From contig JALLOG010000001.1 in the NCBI GenBank assembly GCA_027717645.1, positions 1,951-65,950 on the forward strand: a DNA stretch of 64,000 nt, read 5' to 3'. Shown in pieces: positions 48,498 through 54,945 of the stretch; the stretch's first letter is position 1; every line of letters begins with the position of its first letter. Both the position numbers and the translations under genes were made by a program. The stretch is from Desulfobacterota bacterium AH_259_B03_O07 (lineage in GTDB: Bacteria > Desulfobacterota_D > UBA1144 > Nemesobacterales > CSP1-2). A model generated the notes under the pieces. It was given only the letters and a program-made list of their open reading frames with translations, was not told where the DNA came from and made no database searches.

Positions 48498-48571
48498 TGG
48501 CTGGGGCGGGTGGATTCGAACCACCATAGCAGGCTCCAAAGGCCTGAGTCCTGCCATTAGACGACGCCCCA
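48498..48571 (-). tRNA. tRNA-Gln (UUG), CCA encoded
   Basis: Reverse complement: UGGGGCGUCGUCUAAUGGCAGGACUCAGGCCUUUGGAGCCUGCUAUGGUGGUUCGAAUCCACCCGCCCCAGCCA. Clean cloverleaf with U1-A72 and G73, as in bacterial tRNA-Gln. Confidence 0.92.
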
Positions 48572-48880: not shown

Positions 48881-49744
48881 TTAAAGTCTATGCCAACCCG
48901 ATATTCCTTTGACTAAATATACTTTGAACTTTGAGCTATCTTTGATGTAGTTATAAATAATACTTGCCTCTTTTTTCTCTTTAAAGGCAGCGAAGACGGT
49001 CGGACCGCTGCCAGTCATAGATACTGCTCTAGCTCCGATATCGATTAACCTGTCTTTTAGCTGTTTTATCTCCGGGTATACTCCAATAGCAGCTTTTTCT
49101 AGATCATTCCAAAGTGGAAACTTTCCGTTTCTAAACATCGAAATAGTGTTTTCAATATTTTCAAGTCTTAATTCTTCTTTATCGGTCTCTTCCCATTGTT
49201 CATAGATTTTTCTGGTTGATACTTCAAATCCGGGGTTAATAATCAGATAGTGAAATAGAGGGAAATCTCTTATTACGGTGATTTGTTCTCCTATTCCCTC
49301 TGCTATCGCGCTCCTGCAATTTATAAAAAGAGCTACATCGGCCCCGATTTTGGCTGAGGTTTTAAGGAGTTCATCTTGGGTAAGTTTCTTTGTTATTTTA
49401 TTTAAGCCTACCAGGACTGCTCCGGCGTTACTGCTCCCACCACCAAGTCCTGCCCCCAATGGTATTGTTTTCTTAATAGAAATTCTAACCTTGAAACTTA
49501 GCCTAGATTCTTTAAGAAAGAGATCCGAGGCCCTCCATGCAAGATTTTCATCTCCCGAAGGCAATTTAAGCCCTTTTGATTGAATTTCGATTCCTACCCC
49601 ATCAAAGATTTCAATCTTAATCTCATCAAATATATTTACTGGCTGCATAATTGATCTAATTTCATGGTATCCGTCAGGCCTTTTGCCAAGGATTTCCAGT
49701 GTCAAATTAACCTTAGCAGGTGAGAGTAGGGTAATGTTATTCAT
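48881..49744 (-). CDS. ispE: 4-(cytidine 5'-diphospho)-2-C-methyl-D-erythritol kinase
   Basis: SPAKVNLTLEILGKRPDGYHEI and IPLGAGLGGGSSNAGAVL (GHMP motif). Confidence 0.92.
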   Translation of the reverse strand: MNNITLLSPAKVNLTLEILGKRPDGYHEIRSIMQPVNIFDEIKIEIFDGVGIEIQSKGLKLPSGDENLAWRASDLFLKESRLSFKVRISIKKTIPLGAGLGGGSSNAGAVLVGLNKITKKLTQDELLKTSAKIGADVALFINCRSAIAEGIGEQITVIRDFPLFHYLIINPGFEVSTRKIYEQWEETDKEELRLENIENTISMFRNGKFPLWNDLEKAAIGVYPEIKQLKDRLIDIGARAVSMTGSGPTVFAAFKEKKEASIIYNYIKDSSKFKVYLVKGISGWHRL

Positions 49745-49960
49745 TGAAATTGAACAAATATTAGGTAATAATGAATTAATTCATTTTTTTCCATTATATC
49801 GAGCTAAAAGAATTCCAAACTAGTATGGCTTTTCTCTTTATTATATAATTGCTTGACATTAAATGTTTATACTGATTATCATATTTCCCAATTTTGGTAC
49901 AGCATTCAAATAAACTATAATCGTGTCTATGCATTGTATTTTTACATTAAGGAGGAAAAT

Positions 49961-50365
49961 ATGAAATTAAAAAAATGGGTTCTGTTGGGATTAATAGCAG
50001 TTGTACCACTTTTAAATCAGGGTTGTTGGGCTGCGGCAGCTGGAACGGTGGGTGTAGCAGCCGGTGCTGGAACTATTGCATACATTAAAGGCGAGCTTAA
50101 GGCAACCGAAGCCTATTCCGTACCTGACGTTTGGATAGCAACAGAGAAAGCAGTTGACGAGATGCAATTGATTGTGACCGAGAAAGAGCACGACGTTACA
50201 GCAGGAAGACTTGATGCCTATACTGCTGATAACCAGAAGGTACGCATAAGCCTTAAAAGACATGGTGATAACATTACTGAAATAACGATTCGAATTGGAA
50301 CTCTTGGTGACCAAGAACTCTCCCGTTTTATTTTATCAAAGATACAGAAGAATCTAAAAGGATAA
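49961..50365 (+). CDS. DUF3568-like lipoprotein (copy A)
   Basis: AGGAGG RBS. MKLKKWVLLGLIAVVPLLNQGC carries the lipobox. The C-terminal 91 aa are 89% identical to 52137..52412. Confidence 0.75.
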   Translation: MKLKKWVLLGLIAVVPLLNQGCWAAAAGTVGVAAGAGTIAYIKGELKATEAYSVPDVWIATEKAVDEMQLIVTEKEHDVTAGRLDAYTADNQKVRISLKRHGDNITEITIRIGTLGDQELSRFILSKIQKNLKG

Positions 50366-50400
50366 ATAAATCTTACAGACCTAAGCTTGAATATTAAATC

Positions 50401-50580
50401 TTAATTCTTCAGGTCGGTTAAAGCTGAAAATTTAGCACCATACCAGTCAATATAATCGCCAAGTCGTTTTTCGATGAATTCTATTTCTTTATCTGTAAGT
50501 TCTCTTTCTAGTTCCTGATCAGCTACGTTTTGTAAGTCATCAACATTGATGAAATAAATAACCCTATTTTTTGTTTTCAT
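50401..50580 (-). CDS. small acidic protein, family copy 1 (59 aa)
   Basis: My translation: MKTKNRVIYFINVDDLQNVADQELERELTDKEIEFIEKRLGDYIDWYGAKFSALTDLKN. It is a paralogue of 52446..52640 and is 1 aa below the ORF-track cutoff. Confidence 0.6.
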   Translation of the reverse strand: MKTKNRVIYFINVDDLQNVADQELERELTDKEIEFIEKRLGDYIDWYGAKFSALTDLKN

Positions 50581-50687
50581 AATTTTTAACCTTTATTAAT
50601 TTAAAGACGATTTCTGATATTGTGCATAAATTATACAAAACAGAAACTTCTTGCAATCATATAACAATCCAACCTAGTTGTGATACT

Positions 50688-51074
50688 TCATAATCTTTTT
50701 TCCTTATTTAAATACTGAATTATTTTATCTACAAATTTCTTTCCATTCTTAAGTATTCCTTCTGCCTCCACTTTGGTTATAACGAATGTATGATCATAGT
50801 CTCCTAGCTGTCTCTTTTCAAAAGCTCTATTTAGTTCCCTGCTCATTTCCTTTGCAAGAATATCTGTTTTGATGAAATGTTTTCCGAAAGCAGAAATCAC
50901 ACCTTTGTGAGACGAGAATTATAAGTTCTTACTAAGCAATGCTGCTTGAGCACAATACAACATCGCATAGTATGTTCTTGAAACTGAAGATTCGTAATCT
51001 CCATCCTTGAGAAGTACTTCTGCACTTTTGATATATCTTTTAGCCCTTTTAACTAGGGATTCTATTTCTTTCAA
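50688..51074 (-). pseudogene. HEPN-domain toxin gene with in-frame TAA at codon 52
   Basis: The TTG start overlaps the MNT stop (GCTTGA). The frame reads KEIESLVKRAKRYIKSAEVLLKDGDYESSVSRTYYAMLYCAQAALLSKNL-TAA(50919-50921)-FSSHKGVISAFGKHF...KRQLGDYDH (R-x6-H). Confidence 0.75.
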
Positions 51075-51385
51075 GCAGATATTCCTTCTCTCCGAACATT
51101 TATAAGTAGTGGGCTTTTTACTGTGGAATAGTCCTCTTCGGAGATGGGATAAACGAAGAGTAATACGCCATATTCTAGATTGATATCGGTAATGATGTTG
51201 ATCATTCTATCAACCTCTTTTCCAGGAATAACTTTCCCTTGGAGAACAATAAGCAGATCAATGTCTGATTCTTCTGTTGCATCACCTCTCGCCCATGAAC
51301 CATAGAGAACGATATCTTTTAATTTCTTACTATATAGTTTTTCAACTTCAGCTCTGAATTCATCAAGTATTTTATTTATTTTCAT
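51071..51385 (-). CDS. minimal nucleotidyltransferase (MNT) antitoxin
   Basis: LYGSWARGDATEESDIDLLIV (GSxxRGD...DxD); 104 aa. Confidence 0.88.
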   Translation of the reverse strand: MKINKILDEFRAEVEKLYSKKLKDIVLYGSWARGDATEESDIDLLIVLQGKVIPGKEVDRMINIITDINLEYGVLLFVYPISEEDYSTVKSPLLINVRREGISA

Positions 51386-51528
51386 AATATTGTCTCAAAA
51401 ATTTCACTCAATTTGTTAACCTTGGGATATTCGTTAGTGTTTTCTGGTTCTACAACCTCTTTTATTGCTTCTCTAACATAAAAATCACAGTGGATAAATA
51501 TACTTAATTTATGTTTCACTTCAATCAG

Positions 51529-51624
51529 TTAGCAATAAGTAAGTTCTCTATCTAATTCCTGTTCGGCTACATTCTGTAAGTCTTCAACATTTAAGGAATA
51601 AATAATCCTATTTTTCGTTTTCAT
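51529..51624 (-). pseudogene. truncated copy 2 of the small acidic ORF (first 28 codons only)
   Basis: MKTKNRIIYSLNVEDLQNVAEQELDRELT, then unrelated sequence and a stop. The ATG lies 4 nt after the HicB-like stop. Confidence 0.65.
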
Positions 51625-51628
51625 AATT

Positions 51629-51802
51629 TTAACTCCCATTGTTTTTGTTTAATTCTTCGATGGTTGCTAAATACGATTTTATTGCATCTCTTATCTTTTC
51701 TAAAGCTTCTTCTGAATCTCCCTGCGACCAGCAACCACGTAATCCAGGACACCAAACAGAGTAACCCTCGTCGGTCTTTTTGAGATTGACCTTATATCTC
51801 AT
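51629..51802 (-). CDS. HicB-family (UPF0150) antitoxin-like protein, 57 aa, no HicA partner seen
   Basis: My translation: MRYKVNLKKTDEGYSVWCPGLRGCWSQGDSEEALEKIRDAIKSYLATIEELNKNNGS. AAGGAG RBS upstream. Confidence 0.65.
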   Translation of the reverse strand: MRYKVNLKKTDEGYSVWCPGLRGCWSQGDSEEALEKIRDAIKSYLATIEELNKNNGS

Positions 51803-51965
51803 AACGTATACTCCTTAATGTCTTTGTAGATGAAGTTAATATCTTAGCAATTTTATTAGACTTAAACGAGCTGATTTTATACGGCTTGCTAAAGTGTTTC
51901 TATTTTCATTTTACTGCATAATACTAGGTTTAAGTTTTCCGAAGCAATCCGTACAACAAAGTCTA

Positions 51966-52412
51966 ATGGATCGTTGGCGTGGCGCTATTAAATTAAAAAT
52001 ATGGTTTCTTTTAGGATTACTCGGAATTATACCACTTTTAAATCAGGGTTCTTATACGTTTAGTCCGATGGGGGATGTAGTGGTACCATTAGTTAGACAA
52101 ATTCATGTACCTCCTGGAACAGTTGCTTATGTTACGGGTGAGCTTAAGGCAACCGAAGCTTATTCAGTATCTGACGTATGGATAGCAACAGAGAAAGCGG
52201 TTGACGAGATGCAATTGGTTGTGACGGATAAAGAGCACGACGTTACCGCAGGAAGACTTGATGCCTATACTGCTGATAATAAGAAGGCACGCATAAGCCT
52301 GAAGAGACAAGGTGATAACATTACCGAAATTACGATTCGAATTGGGATATTCGGAGACGAAGAACTATCTCGTTTTATTTTATCCAAGATACAGAGGAAT
52401 TTAAAAGGATAA
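51966..52412 (+). CDS. DUF3568-like protein (copy B), lipobox Cys and ancestral ATG lost
   Basis: The ancestral ATG AAA TTA is now ATT AAA TTA, and LLNQGC is now LLNQGS. A new upstream ATG (MDRWRGAIKLKIW...) keeps the ORF open. Confidence 0.55.
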   Translation: MDRWRGAIKLKIWFLLGLLGIIPLLNQGSYTFSPMGDVVVPLVRQIHVPPGTVAYVTGELKATEAYSVSDVWIATEKAVDEMQLVVTDKEHDVTAGRLDAYTADNKKARISLKRQGDNITEITIRIGIFGDEELSRFILSKIQRNLKG

Positions 52413-52445
52413 TCGCTATTATTACTGCTGTTCTAAGATATATAT

Positions 52446-52640
52446 TCAATTCTTTGATCCTAGTTCGTTTAGATCATTTAAAGCTAGGGTTATTGTTCCA
52501 TACCAATCTATATAGTCATCAATCCGGTTTTCAATAAATTCTATTTCTTTATCTGTTAGTTCTCTGTCTAGTTCCTGATCAGCTACATTTTGTAAGTCTT
52601 CGACATTGATGGAATAAACTATCCTTTCTCTTGCACTCAT
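52446..52640 (-). CDS. small acidic protein, family copy 3 (64 aa)
   Basis: MSARERIVYSINVEDLQNVADQELDRELTDKEIEFIENRIDDYIDWYG... with a GGAGGT RBS. It lies 76 nt downstream of the EVE-nuclease gene. Confidence 0.65.
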   Translation of the reverse strand: MSARERIVYSINVEDLQNVADQELDRELTDKEIEFIENRIDDYIDWYGTITLALNDLNELGSKN

Positions 52641-52716
52641 GGTTTTATACCTCCATTGTTACGAGTTTAATATTTAACTCATAGTTGTAGTCAGCAAGAT
52701 GCACACTTTCATAAAA

Positions 52717-53586
52717 TTATCTTTTAAAAATACCTAGAGCTCGCTCCAAATCTTTGTAATCCCTTTTCTTTTCAAGCAACTCCTTAATTGAGGTGATATC
52801 AATAAATCGCATTTGATCTGCTACTTCGTGAAAGGTTCCCGATAGCAATTCCTCGTACTTGCTCTTATCACCCATGGTTGCAACCAGAAAAATATGACTA
52901 TTCCAAAGGTCGAAAGCATGTTTAAGTTTAGCCATCGCATGATAAATGTCTCCACCGATTTGTACTTCGAACACAAACGTGGGAACCGAACGCTCGACCC
53001 TGCGCCAAACAACATCAAGGCGTGTACTTTCTAGTGCATACTCCTCATCAGCAATGTAGCCTTGAACACGACCTATCTCTGCCAAATAAGCTTTTAAATC
53101 ATCATGTTTAATTGCGCCGGGCTCAGTTGTAGCTCTGTCTGCGACTATGGGCAAAATGGTAGTTTCGGTTAGAGGCTTTAAATCCAAGGCAACTCTTGCA
53201 GCATTTACTTCTTCAATAGGGTAGCACTGAAAGACCATTCTGCTTATCATCTGTAAATCATGTGAGGTATATCTGCGAGACTTCCATAAGCTGGGGGGAA
53301 GACAATACTCAATATCGAATTCAAAGCGGAGCGGCCAAATTACTTCATTTCTCTTTATTTCATCTGGCCAGAGAGGATTCGTCTGTCTGAACTTTGTCAC
53401 CACATGTCCAAAACCAATTATTCCATGTACTGGTTTGGACACGTAGAAAAGCAAACCATCTCCTTCACGGAGCATGCTCCACAAAGACCTGAGCTCTCGA
53501 AAATCCTTTAATCCCCAAAGGTTGCTATTTTCAAAAGCTACTTTCCAGTTTTTCTCAGATCCGACTACAAGCCAGAATTGATGCAT
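52717..53586 (-). CDS. EVE/PUA-like domain fused to a PD-(D/E)xK-like (restriction-endonuclease-fold) domain
   Basis: N-terminus: FWLVVGSEKNWKVAFENSNLWGLKD...LREGDGLLFYVSKPVHGIIGFGHVV...VIWPLRFEF. C-terminus: EYALESTRLDVVWRR-x9-FVFEVQIGGDIYHAMAKLKHA (E186, D191, E207-x-Q209). Confidence 0.55.
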   Translation of the reverse strand: MHQFWLVVGSEKNWKVAFENSNLWGLKDFRELRSLWSMLREGDGLLFYVSKPVHGIIGFGHVVTKFRQTNPLWPDEIKRNEVIWPLRFEFDIEYCLPPSLWKSRRYTSHDLQMISRMVFQCYPIEEVNAARVALDLKPLTETTILPIVADRATTEPGAIKHDDLKAYLAEIGRVQGYIADEEYALESTRLDVVWRRVERSVPTFVFEVQIGGDIYHAMAKLKHAFDLWNSHIFLVATMGDKSKYEELLSGTFHEVADQMRFIDITSIKELLEKKRDYKDLERALGIFKR

Positions 53587-53631: not shown

Positions 53632-54945
53632 TCAGATATATTCTCCTTTATATGCCCAATCTAATAATTCGATTGGATGGACCGTTTTAATATTTAGGCC
53701 TTCTTGTTTGATCCCTTTTTGAATCTGGAGTAGGCAGCCTGGATTTCCAGCAACAAGCAACTCAGCGTTGGTTTCTTTCAGATTTTCGATCTTACGATTA
53801 AGCAATTTTTCTGACATCTCAGGTTCAATTAGGTTGTAAATTCCTGCACTTCCACAACACAGCTCTGATTCTGGCATCTCGACAAATTCTATACCAGGTA
53901 TTTGTTTAATTATTTCTCTTGGTTGGATTTTTATCCGCTGGGCATGGGCGATATGGCATGCGTCCTGGTATGTCACTCTACATTTTAATCTTTTTAATTC
54001 TCCACTAAGGCCTATTTCCGATAAAAATTCCATTACGTCTTTCGTTTTCTGGCTTATCTTTTCCGCCCGATTAGCGTAGTTGGGGTCATCTTTTAGGATT
54101 TCTCCATATTCCTTCATTGCGGAACCACATCCAGCGGAGTTTACAATTATTGTATCAACACCATGTTTTTCAAATACGTCTATATTAGATCGGGCGAAGT
54201 TACGTGCTTCAGATATTCTTCCTGAATGAAGAGAAAGTGCACCACAGCAGCCTTGATTCCCGGGAACGATTACCTCACAACCGTTTTCCGATAAAACTCT
54301 AATAGTAGCCTCATTTGTTTTGGGAAAGAGAATACTCTGAACACATCCGGTAAGAGTTGCAACTCTATGGCGTTTTGTTCCTTTAGCTGGCATAAAATTA
54401 GGCATAGATGAAAATAAATTTGAGGAATTAATTTGAGGTAACATTAGATCCATTGTGGCCAGTTTCTTAGAAAGCTTGAGGAGAATCCCAGTAGACTCGA
54501 CCAAGCGCCTGAGTCCAGTTGCTTGATACAAATAAAGAAATGGAAGAAGAAATCGGAGTCTCTTGGGATAAGGAAAAATGGAAAATAATATAGCACGTTG
54601 AAGCTTATCGGTAATAGGTCTTTCGTAACGTCTTTCAATTTGTGATCTTGCGGCTTCTATAAGCCTTGAATAATCAACTCCAGATGGACATGCTGGCTCA
54701 CATGCCATACAGCCAAGACACATGTCCAGATGTTTAACTAAAGATCCACCCATGGGGATCTTTCCCTCTAAGGCTGATTTCATGAGATAAATTCTCCCTC
54801 TGGGAGAATCAAGTTCATTTCCCGTTTCTAAATATGTAGGACAGGCAGAAAGACAGAATCCACAATGCACGCAGTCTTTAATGAAGTCCATGCTAGGTGT
54901 GTCAATTTCATCAAATGCTTGAAAGTTTGTAGTTTTCTCTTCCAT
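53632..54945 (-). CDS. glcF: glycolate oxidase iron-sulfur subunit
   Basis: CVHCGFCLSACPTY and CLGCMACEPACPSG ferredoxin motifs, plus two CCG-type domains (CCGSAG). Confidence 0.88.
   Translation of the reverse strand: MEEKTTNFQAFDEIDTPSMDFIKDCVHCGFCLSACPTYLETGNELDSPRGRIYLMKSALEGKIPMGGSLVKHLDMCLGCMACEPACPSGVDYSRLIEAARSQIERRYERPITDKLQRAILFSIFPYPKRLRFLLPFLYLYQATGLRRLVESTGILLKLSKKLATMDLMLPQINSSNLFSSMPNFMPAKGTKRHRVATLTGCVQSILFPKTNEATIRVLSENGCEVIVPGNQGCCGALSLHSGRISEARNFARSNIDVFEKHGVDTIIVNSAGCGSAMKEYGEILKDDPNYANRAEKISQKTKDVMEFLSEIGLSGELKRLKCRVTYQDACHIAHAQRIKIQPREIIKQIPGIEFVEMPESELCCGSAGIYNLIEPEMSEKLLNRKIENLKETNAELLVAGNPGCLLQIQKGIKQEGLNIKTVHPIELLDWAYKGEYI

Follow-up and report, generated by a model that had tools for sequence, protein, structure and literature searches.

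We examined a 64,000-nt stretch of DNA (the window) of contig JALLOG010000001.1 from Desulfobacterota bacterium AH_259_B03_O07 (assembly GCA_027717645.1; forward-strand positions 1,951-65,950), in which a cluster of toxin-antitoxin (TA) and defence genes between the core genes glcF and ispE holds three copies of a small open reading frame (sORF) of ∼60 amino acids (sORF1, sORF2 and sORF3). Coordinates refer to positions within the window, loci fetched from other genomes or metagenomes are given as L plus a number, and a prime marks a decayed gene copy. Among the fetched genomes, those closest to the window are Candidatus Dadabacteria metagenome-assembled genomes (MAGs). Read along the minus strand, the order is glcF, EVE-domain protein, sORF3 (with DUF3568-B on the opposite strand), HicB-like gene, sORF2, MNT, HEPN, sORF1 (with DUF3568-A on the opposite strand) and ispE (Table 1). 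The gene order and identities in the original prediction for this locus hold when checked against the open reading frame (ORF) list and Pfam, and the sequence strings that it quoted are found where it placed them. Genes that still appear intact are those for the EVE protein, MNT, sORF1, sORF3 and DUF3568-A; exact-sequence look-ups of the window sORF1, MNT and DUF3568-A matched no record. Taken together, the data presented below make it probable that the region from 49.9 to 53.6 kb is a lineage-specific defence/TA hotspot between glcF and ispE of a Dadabacteria-like genome, with recombination-driven turnover and stacked alleles.

Table 1. Features of the glcF-ispE region of the window, with the evidence for each and its apparent state.
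Feature	Position	Strand	Evidence and state
tRNA-Gln	48498..48571	-	ARAGORN, Rfam; beyond ispE, conserved right flank outside the putative hotspot
ispE	48881..49744	-	ORF; core gene, right flank; 67% amino-acid identity to the same-position GHMP-kinase gene of L001
DUF3568-A	49961..50365	+	Pfam DUF3568 E = 4.7e-30; intact lipoprotein gene, lipobox LNQGC; resident copy
sORF1	50401..50580	-	family hidden Markov model (HMM) E = 6.6e-35; intact, 59 aa; resident copy
HEPN	50688..51074	-	Pfam HEPN; toxin gene inactivated by in-frame TAA 50919-50921
MNT nucleotidyltransferase (antitoxin-type)	51071..51385	-	Pfam NTP_transf_2, Polbeta; PADLOC PDC-S09 E = 5.7e-36; intact, 104 aa
sORF2	51382..51624	-	full-length chimeric sORF-family pseudogene; in-frame TAA 51529-51531
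HicB-like relic	51629..51802	-	Pfam HicB_lk_antitox; 57 aa
Unique spacer	51803..51985	.	between HicB start and start of DUF3568-B homology
DUF3568-B	51986..52412	+	second copy; ATG -> ATT, lipobox Cys -> Ser
sORF3	52446..52640	-	family HMM E = 9.7e-37; intact, 64 aa
EVE-domain protein	52717..53586	-	Pfam EVE; 289 aa
glcF	53632..54945	-	ORF; core gene, left flank of the putative hotspot

The original prediction had regarded the locus as a candidate hotspot for exchangeable cassettes and had suggested comparing the glcF-ispE region among relatives. This comparison, made over the interval from glcF (or DUF3891) to the sORF, bears the idea out: the relatives have no fixed arrangement, and about a dozen different contents, rich in defence and TA genes, lie between glcF and the sORF. 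The kinds of cargo at the site include EVE, NmeDI_C, TdeIII restriction-modification (RM), EcoO109I RM, TIR_2, ParE/Phd, DUF4258/DUF2283, MNT-HEPN and a HEPN relic. Only a ∼110-nt relic of the HEPN 3' end is left in L001 and L034, where the DNA aligns colinearly with the end of HEPN, the spacer and sORF1 of the window. L003 and L007 carry a 72-aa gene, an NmeDI_C protein and a TdeIII 3' relic; L037 carries DUF4258-DUF2283, an N6/N4 methyltransferase and RE_TdeIII; L038 a methyltransferase, a 421-aa gene and TdeIII; L047 TIR_2 with a 115-aa gene; and L045 and L036 the same EVE protein as the window. More composite contents are found in L092 (ParE/Phd, a duplicated glcF 3' fragment, M-R.EcoO109I-sORF paralog, intact MNT-HEPN with a sORF remnant, DUF3568, ispE and a tRNA), in L094 (sORF paralog-MNT-sORF, with HEPN deleted) and in L095 (EVE-sORF-MNT-HEPN). 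The methyltransferase-TdeIII-sORF block of L037 recurs in L041, with a 100% identical restriction endonuclease, other upstream genes and no glcF match.

The flanks of this variable cargo are conserved. Upstream of the sORF, glcF is retained with 72-77% amino-acid identity in L001, L003, L007 and L037 and 78% to a partial copy in L034; L045 and L047 contain short partial matches (58-61 aa, 69-74%), and for L092 the DNA identity is 72% over 526 nt. The downstream flank of DUF3568 and ispE is kept in L001 and L092, and DUF3568-A is orthologous to the convergent DUF3568 gene of these two loci. The copy that is orthologous to those of relatives, and that we call resident, is MNT-HEPN-sORF1-DUF3568-A beside ispE. 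Nucleotide identity between the window and L045 amounts to 66% for the glcF 3' end, 84-88% for EVE, 43% for the EVE-sORF spacer and 72% for the sORF; against L036 it is 92% for EVE, and for the sORF 89% over the first 61 nt (7 mismatches) and 71% thereafter (27 mismatches in the next 93 nt). Judged by these identities, cargo and flanks evidently have different histories, and the cargo appears to move independently.

The EVE domain of the leftmost module is confirmed by Pfam EVE and by EVE/UPF0310 matches in the PDB. At the amino-acid level the protein is 84-89% identical to its homologs in L045 (87%), L095 and L035; the 92% quoted above for L036 is DNA identity. Its C-terminal domain is conserved, with E..D..E-V-Q columns, has no Pfam or PDB nuclease match, and is presumed to be a nuclease. 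A single-sequence AlphaFold2 (AF2) model of the protein was unusable (predicted local distance difference test (pLDDT) score of 37). Of note, a C-run in the EVE gene (∼53290-53297, minus strand) has six C in the window and eight C in L036 (∼580-600), where the gene is split into two ORFs; this difference could reflect phase variation or a sequencing error.

The repeats that the original prediction had noticed are real: DUF3568-A and DUF3568-B are 88% identical over 299 nt, and sORF1 and sORF3 77% over 190 nt. They belong to a direct repeat of ∼640-690 nt (49960-50602 versus 51986-52671; 77-88% identical) that comprises sORF plus DUF3568, a unit that is single-copy in L001. Comparable repeats surround inserts elsewhere. 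In L092, 238 nt of the glcF 3' end is duplicated with 95% identity (294-531 and 1771-2008) around a ParE/Phd insert, and in L095, 121 nt of the sORF 3' region is repeated with 84% identity around MNT-HEPN. Long direct repeats of more than 30 bp around inserts, single-copy where the insert is absent, as expected for target duplication, are thus found in the window, L092 and L095. The L092 insert consists of the ParE/Phd TA pair and a 69-aa gene, and the duplication leaves a 68-aa glcF fragment ORF. Homology between the two DUF3568 copies of the window starts exactly at the start codon, with a nonsynonymous to synonymous rate ratio (dN/dS) of 0.12 and a synonymous divergence (dS) of 0.49.

A triple arrangement of this kind might also be produced by mis-joining of strain variants of a single locus within a MAG. 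The source contig is of the MAG type, the modules resemble alleles that are found singly in other samples, and the metagenome contig L083 (711 nt), with 98.6% identity to the window between the HicB ATG and the 5' end of MNT, diverges from it exactly at the HicB start codon. We nevertheless judge an assembly artefact to be very improbable. L090, from a different metagenome, is colinear with the window across DUF3568-B', the spacer, HicB', sORF2', MNT and the HEPN 5' end (97.7% over 1.4 kb), L091 is 99.7% identical over sORF2'-MNT-HEPN, and stacked modules also occur in L092 and L095; in addition, repeat copies with 77-88% identity are too divergent for an assembler to collapse or mis-join. For the spacer at 51803..51985, neither the region upstream of DUF3568-A nor any fetched locus other than L090 (97.7%) shows homology; it is absent from L083. 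The first 162 nt of L083 is unrelated to window positions 51803-51965, which would mean either an alternative junction or a chimeric contig; for this part of L083, upstream of HicB, neither the window nor any locus yielded an informative match.

With respect to origin, the original prediction had proposed that an ancestral unit of HicB plus sORF, convergent with DUF3568, was multiplied in place and that the HicB body was then replaced in two of the copies. Two observations speak for this model: sORF2 and sORF3 share a leader element (ATTAAAC...AACAATGG) beyond chance, and the L001 copy of DUF3568 is more distant from DUF3568-A and DUF3568-B than these two are from one another. The state and distribution of HicB argue against it. 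The HicB-like gene encodes 57 aa, versus 64 aa in almost all members of its family, and the last ∼7 codons are gone, with homology ending 10-20 nt ahead of the sORF2 ATG. In the family, hicB is followed after a 3-nt gap by hicA, a place that is taken by sORF2 in the window, and the combination of a full-length HicB with an adjacent HicA gene that defines HicAB is not found there. By alignment, HicB is evidently a truncated leftover of a hicB-hicA pair of which the toxin gene is gone. A candidate HicA relic upstream of HicB was rejected, as all three frames there are full of stops and a 24-aa HicA-like stretch has no Pfam match; by the family gene order, hicA is expected downstream of hicB and not upstream. 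At the site itself, HicB is present in none of the glcF-linked loci from other relatives and is seen only in L090 and L083, which repeat the window arrangement. HEPN precedes the resident copy in three relatives, and L001 and L034 keep a HEPN 3' relic and no HicB relic. Moreover, sORF1 and sORF3 share 69-70% protein identity with each other, and each reaches up to 78-79% with its closest homologs in other samples. The model of a multiplied HicB-sORF unit is thereby largely refuted, and we regard it as highly unlikely.

A key argument for that model had been that the HicB tail recurs, in degraded form, directly before the other two sORFs. This recurrence stands modestly above chance for sORF2 versus sORF3, with a local alignment score of 13 that was reached by 0 of 92 comparisons (with 46 other window-gene leaders) and by 1% of shuffles; for sORF1 versus either of the others, including the HicB tail, it falls to the chance level. 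The string ATTAAACAAAAACAA is native HicB coding sequence (E-L-N-K-N) that is conserved in the HicB family, and alignment with family members shows that GAAGAATTAAACAAAAACAA is likewise native HicB coding sequence (E-E-L-N-K-N). A leader profile made from 13 loci of other genomes, none of which has HicB upstream, scored 16.6 bits (E = 1.3e-5) for the sORF3 leader and 10.8 bits for that of sORF1, with 5.2 bits for the best of 51 control leaders. Since this HicB-free profile recognises both leaders, the shared element is the sORF's own leader and no HicB remnant; its consensus is ∼TTTAAAtCAATrGAGGTtTAAAAcy-ATG (∼25 nt, conserved in the near clade). What had been read as a HicB tail is thus native HicB coding sequence for the most part, plus the sORF's own Shine-Dalgarno leader, which is found in HicB-free relatives as well.

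The original prediction had also taken sORF2 to be truncated and MNT-HEPN to sit exactly at its truncation point. Both statements fail, because the sORF2 frame runs past a single TAA for 48 more codons, up to a TGA that overlaps the MNT ATG. The first 29 codons of sORF2 are of the canonical type, with 51539-51624 being ∼87% identical to sORF1. From 51524 to 50687 the window is 86% identical to L092:3862-4699, a block that begins with the 3' two-thirds of sORF2 (51382-51524); in L092 the counterpart of this 3' part belongs to a 69-aa sORF paralog between R.EcoO109I and MNT. Since the 5' codons are canonical and the 3' part corresponds to the 69-aa paralog, sORF2 is a full-length chimera in which two sORF subtypes meet at a nonsense codon. 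The HicB block is therefore joined to the MNT-HEPN block inside sORF-family sequence. Diverged sORF paralogs of 67-69 aa form a subfamily that is found beside canonical sORFs (L040:4740-4943, L043:3111-3314, L050:2161-2364 and L092:3750-3959), in contexts that include a position after a GHKL-type ATPase, one between M and R.TdeIII, and the one between R.EcoO109I and MNT. A sigma70-like promoter (TTGAAG-16-TATATT) that had been assigned to MNT-HEPN is present as a string; it matches at 9 of 12 positions only, 21 such matches occur in the region versus 13.8 +/- 4.6 in shuffles, and it was rejected as no better than AT-rich background.

As for MNT-HEPN itself, MNT is intact and HEPN is interrupted at codon 52, which is TCA in L090 and L092 and TAA in the window. 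Pfam HEPN matches both halves of the interrupted gene: the N-terminal match passes with 39.5 bits, and the C-terminal match, at 18.1 bits, remains below the cutoff of 22. An R-x6-H stretch (RQLGDYDH) is present in the part past the stop. A type VII system, defined as MNT followed by an intact HEPN with an R-x4-6-H motif, is accordingly not encoded here. In PADLOC-DB 2.0, MNT corresponds to PDC-S09 and the C-terminal part of HEPN to PDC-M05B, both candidate families, with no match for the sORFs, the EVE protein or HicB. In L090, HEPN shows a TTG to TAG change ∼40 nt upstream of the window's stop position (L090:∼1296-1304); the whole gene is deleted in L094, left as a 3' relic in L001 (4770-4880) and L034, and intact in L092 and L095. 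By comparison of these alleles, the HEPN toxin has apparently been lost repeatedly and independently.

In the window as well as in L092, L094, L040, L043 and L050, each module ends on its right-hand side with a copy of the sORF. Its family has no Pfam or NCBIfam match (even at E <= 10), no match to a PDB sequence or fold, and only noise in PHROGs. The family comprises 755 clusters at 50% identity, spread over 28 GTDB species in about ten bacterial phyla and several archaeal groups. An AF2 monomer model based on a 53-sequence alignment consists of three helices after a disordered N-terminus (pLDDT 79.6), and the proteins are acidic, with isoelectric points (pI) of 4.0-4.9. With dN/dS at 0.04-0.23, indicating purifying selection, and with synonymous sites varying freely, it is the protein and not a DNA site that is conserved. 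A DNA-level element inside the sORF was rejected on the same ground, and Rfam finds only the tRNA. A phage or plasmid origin, or an anti-restriction role, was likewise rejected, as no relatives were found in IMG/VR, PLSDB or INPHARED and the PHROGs hits were noise. The locus as a whole gave no PHROGs or viral match. By eye the sORF has a strand-helix-helix arrangement resembling ribbon-helix-helix (RHH) proteins; the idea of an RHH or helix-turn-helix (HTH) regulator found no support, with no Pfam, NCBIfam or PDB match and a probability of 0.3% from hhalign against a hand-typed RHH alignment.

We next consider the genes with which the sORF is associated, counted over 65 non-redundant loci with upstream sequence. 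A same-strand nuclease gene lies upstream of the sORF in 39 of these 65 loci, usually at 10-80 nt, and is directly adjacent in 38; in L017 a 97-aa gene lies in between. The neighbours belong to eight restriction-endonuclease/nuclease Pfam families or are EVE-domain proteins: RE_TdeIII, including 3' relics (21 loci), HNH_2 (5), the EVE protein (4), PDDEXK_4 (3), MvaI_BcnI (2), BsobI (2), EcoRII-C (1) and EcoO109I (1), with an NmeDI_C gene further upstream in two of the TdeIII-relic loci. Mostly, the sORF is the last gene of a methyltransferase-nuclease-sORF row, and some of the nucleases lack an adjacent methyltransferase gene. TdeIII 3' relics of 50-73 aa lie directly upstream of the sORF in L003:4832-4984, L007:3677-3838, L023:126-287 and L059:49-219, and in L008:5213-5989 the relic is present as fragments of 171 aa and 73 aa. 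In L003 and L007 it is the different gene, NmeDI_C, that is now further upstream of the relic.

This linkage raises the possibility that every nuclease or toxin upstream of a sORF needs it as a functional partner, for example as an inhibitor, immunity-like protein, regulator or adaptor, with the repeats as a by-product of acquiring modules together with their sORF. In agreement with this, the sORF lies tightly downstream of nuclease genes of eight Pfam families and of EVE, in more than ten phyla and in archaea; purifying selection acts on it through the protein alone; and units of module plus sORF recur in L092, L094, L040, L043 and L050. It is also small, acidic and helical, as are many immunity proteins and antitoxins, and a fusion protein exists: P0130 (186 aa) joins an Mrr_N winged-helix domain to a sORF domain, and is the only clear fusion among the 150 best family representatives. 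Against a dedicated partner, the divergence of the sORF does not follow that of the nuclease: the TdeIII enzymes found with nearly identical sORFs (89-93%) share no more than 29-36% identity, and endonuclease identity correlates weakly with sORF identity (Spearman 0.22). The sORF also remains under selection where the nuclease is a relic or absent (dN/dS 0.17 for L001 versus L034), MNT-HEPN and HicAB already carry their own antitoxins, and the sORF matches no known regulator, antitoxin or solved fold. Furthermore, a protein that is 50-90% identical across loci cannot specifically bind nucleases of unrelated folds, and specific inhibition of many such folds by the sORF is unlikely. We therefore treat the partner explanation as a possible but less probable account.

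The sORF also marks variable sites outside the glcF-ispE locus. In another lineage, a second sORF-anchored hotspot is represented by L050, L052, L054, L056, L060, L061, L062 and L065, with sORFs that are at least 89% identical. Its shared right flank is a candidate hemerythrin-like gene (identified by eye), with or without DUF6155, and the cargo upstream consists of BsoBI, one of three divergent TdeIII enzymes, AIPR, an nSTAND1 NTPase or HNH_2. Because this second hotspot combines the sORF with other flanks, the sORF, and not glcF or ispE, is the common feature of the variable sites.

Units in one orientation with a common terminal element are reminiscent of an integron-like or other site-specific cassette system, in which the sORF leader or 5' end would be the recombination site; the ∼25-nt leader, conserved in the near clade, would fit as well. 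We find this most doubtful. No integrase or transposase ORF was seen in the window at 44-49 kb or 48.5-55 kb, and the junctions vary: they fall 10-20 nt before the ATG (HicB), inside sORF2, at the DUF3568 start codon, inside the glcF 3' end (L092) and in the sORF 3' end (L095). The repeats are long and variable in length, unlike short core sites, and synonymous sites in the sORF are free to change. The tRNA-Gln gene lies ∼1.4 kb from the variable site with no integrase nearby, and a 97% identical tRNA follows ispE in L092 (6337-6408). By reading of the sequence, a candidate IS110-type transposase gene lies downstream in L045.

Our preferred explanation is thus a hotspot that turns over by recombination. 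In this scenario, the conserved ∼60-aa acidic helical sORF protein would be the fixed right-hand element, and the cargo upstream of it would change by recombination with DNA from relatives, a route that we infer. Most events would replace cargo, and some would add to it, leaving long direct repeats of the flank. The window would then hold three stacked alleles: EVE-sORF3-DUF3568-B', HicB'-sORF2', and the resident MNT-HEPN'-sORF1-DUF3568-A. The middle and right modules are decaying, with hicA lost, HicB clipped, sORF2 and HEPN interrupted by nonsense codons, and DUF3568-B without start codon and lipobox. Two routes could have produced the array. A one-sided homologous event may have added glcF-EVE-sORF3-DUF3568-B' ahead of a resident HicB'-sORF2'-MNT-HEPN-sORF1 array, and single-crossover integration of a circular fragment would fit equally well. 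Our best guess is that the sORF protein acts beside the upstream nuclease through putative protein contacts and that its conserved sequence may double as a homology arm for swaps. Such an arm would agree with the chimeric structure of sORF2, with the mosaic sORF3 and with the 3' relics of earlier nucleases upstream of the sORF (L003, L007, L008 and L023).

Several points weigh against this explanation. Every relative is a metagenome contig or a MAG, many of them short, with the whole glcF-ispE region in no fetched relative contig, and single contigs such as L083 may be chimeric assemblies. The stacking may have taken place in more than one order and direction, and the repeat copies are old (dS 0.5-0.8), so that an ancient duplication in place may be involved. 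The 65 loci are phylogenetically non-independent, and 39 of 65 accordingly overstates the number of independent associations. In addition, the sORF is found beside housekeeping genes (L016 and L064) and persists without a nuclease (L001 and L034). Finally, since DNA conservation across the family does not go beyond the effect of protein constraint, a homology arm would be workable only among fairly close relatives.

Defence hotspots and restriction-gene insertions with long duplications are already known, and what makes a site hot is usually left unexplained. The unusual aspect here is a conserved, uncharacterised small gene at the cassette boundary in two unrelated lineages, behind nucleases of many folds. 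A tentative extension, to which we give clearly less weight than to the hotspot itself, is that the sORF family is a new and widespread part of defence cassettes built on nucleases: a cassette end that encodes a protein, moves together with restriction operons, marks the swap site in at least two unrelated lineages, and either aids tolerance or control of a new nuclease or serves as a portable homology arm. If the sORF were causal, it would represent a new restriction-system accessory and, through the genes upstream of it, a handle for new defence genes in uncultured phyla. It would further offer a testable case of cassettes that move without a dedicated recombinase, and would make the whole a modular exchange system that lacks a site-specific recombinase. 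If it is not causal, the locus nonetheless provides a clear and well-documented case of a hotspot at which alleles have been stacked and toxins have decayed.

When compared with known systems, individual modules of the window are recognisable. The HicB-like, MNT and HEPN domains of type II HicAB and type VII MNT-HEPN are present; unlike in working pairs, HicA is absent, HicB is clipped and HEPN carries a nonsense codon, which makes these genes remnants. The EVE domain recalls type IV restriction with an EVE reader, but the C-terminal part has no Pfam or PDB nuclease match. Similar to the controller (C) proteins of RM systems, the sORF is small and is encoded within RM operons of many enzyme families. 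C proteins, however, are HTH proteins encoded upstream of R, whereas the acidic sORF protein matches neither HTH nor RHH, is encoded downstream of R, and also accompanies enzymes that have no adjacent methyltransferase gene. As in integron cassettes, the modules form an array of promoterless-looking units in a single orientation with a common end element. Unlike in integrons, there is no IntI, attC or attI, the junctions are not at a fixed site, and what the modules have in common is a gene whose protein product is under purifying selection, not a folded DNA site; no conserved DNA structure came to light, and the tRNA is the only Rfam match.

The closest parallels are found in two other groups of studies. 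Furuta, Abe and Kobayashi (2010, PMC2853133) described insertion of RM genes with long target duplication, as well as allelic substitution of RM systems. The present loci share with theirs direct repeats of more than 30 bp and of variable length around inserted defence genes, the absence of a transposase, a repeat that is single-copy in insert-free relatives, and different systems at the same site in different genomes. They differ in that the window inserts are an EVE protein and TA remnants and not the R+M pair that was required in that study, which also holds for the inserts in L092 (ParE/Phd) and L095 (MNT-HEPN), and in that the window repeats are much longer (∼650 nt), older (77-88% identity) and inclusive of the whole small gene and most of DUF3568. 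For hotspots without mobile elements, recombination at the core genes on either side has been reported as a source of diversity (Oliveira et al. 2017, PMC5635113), and core defence hotspots (cDHS) are known from Pseudomonas aeruginosa (PMC10250203). Just as in those hotspots, defence-rich variable cargo lies between conserved core genes with no integrase, and genomes resemble each other more in the cargo than in the flanks, as would fit recombination at the flanks. In contrast to them, the right boundary here is formed not by an ordinary core gene but by a small gene that moves together with restriction operons across phyla and also delimits a second hotspot, with other flanks, in another lineage. 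In addition, alleles are stacked with duplication of the flanks.

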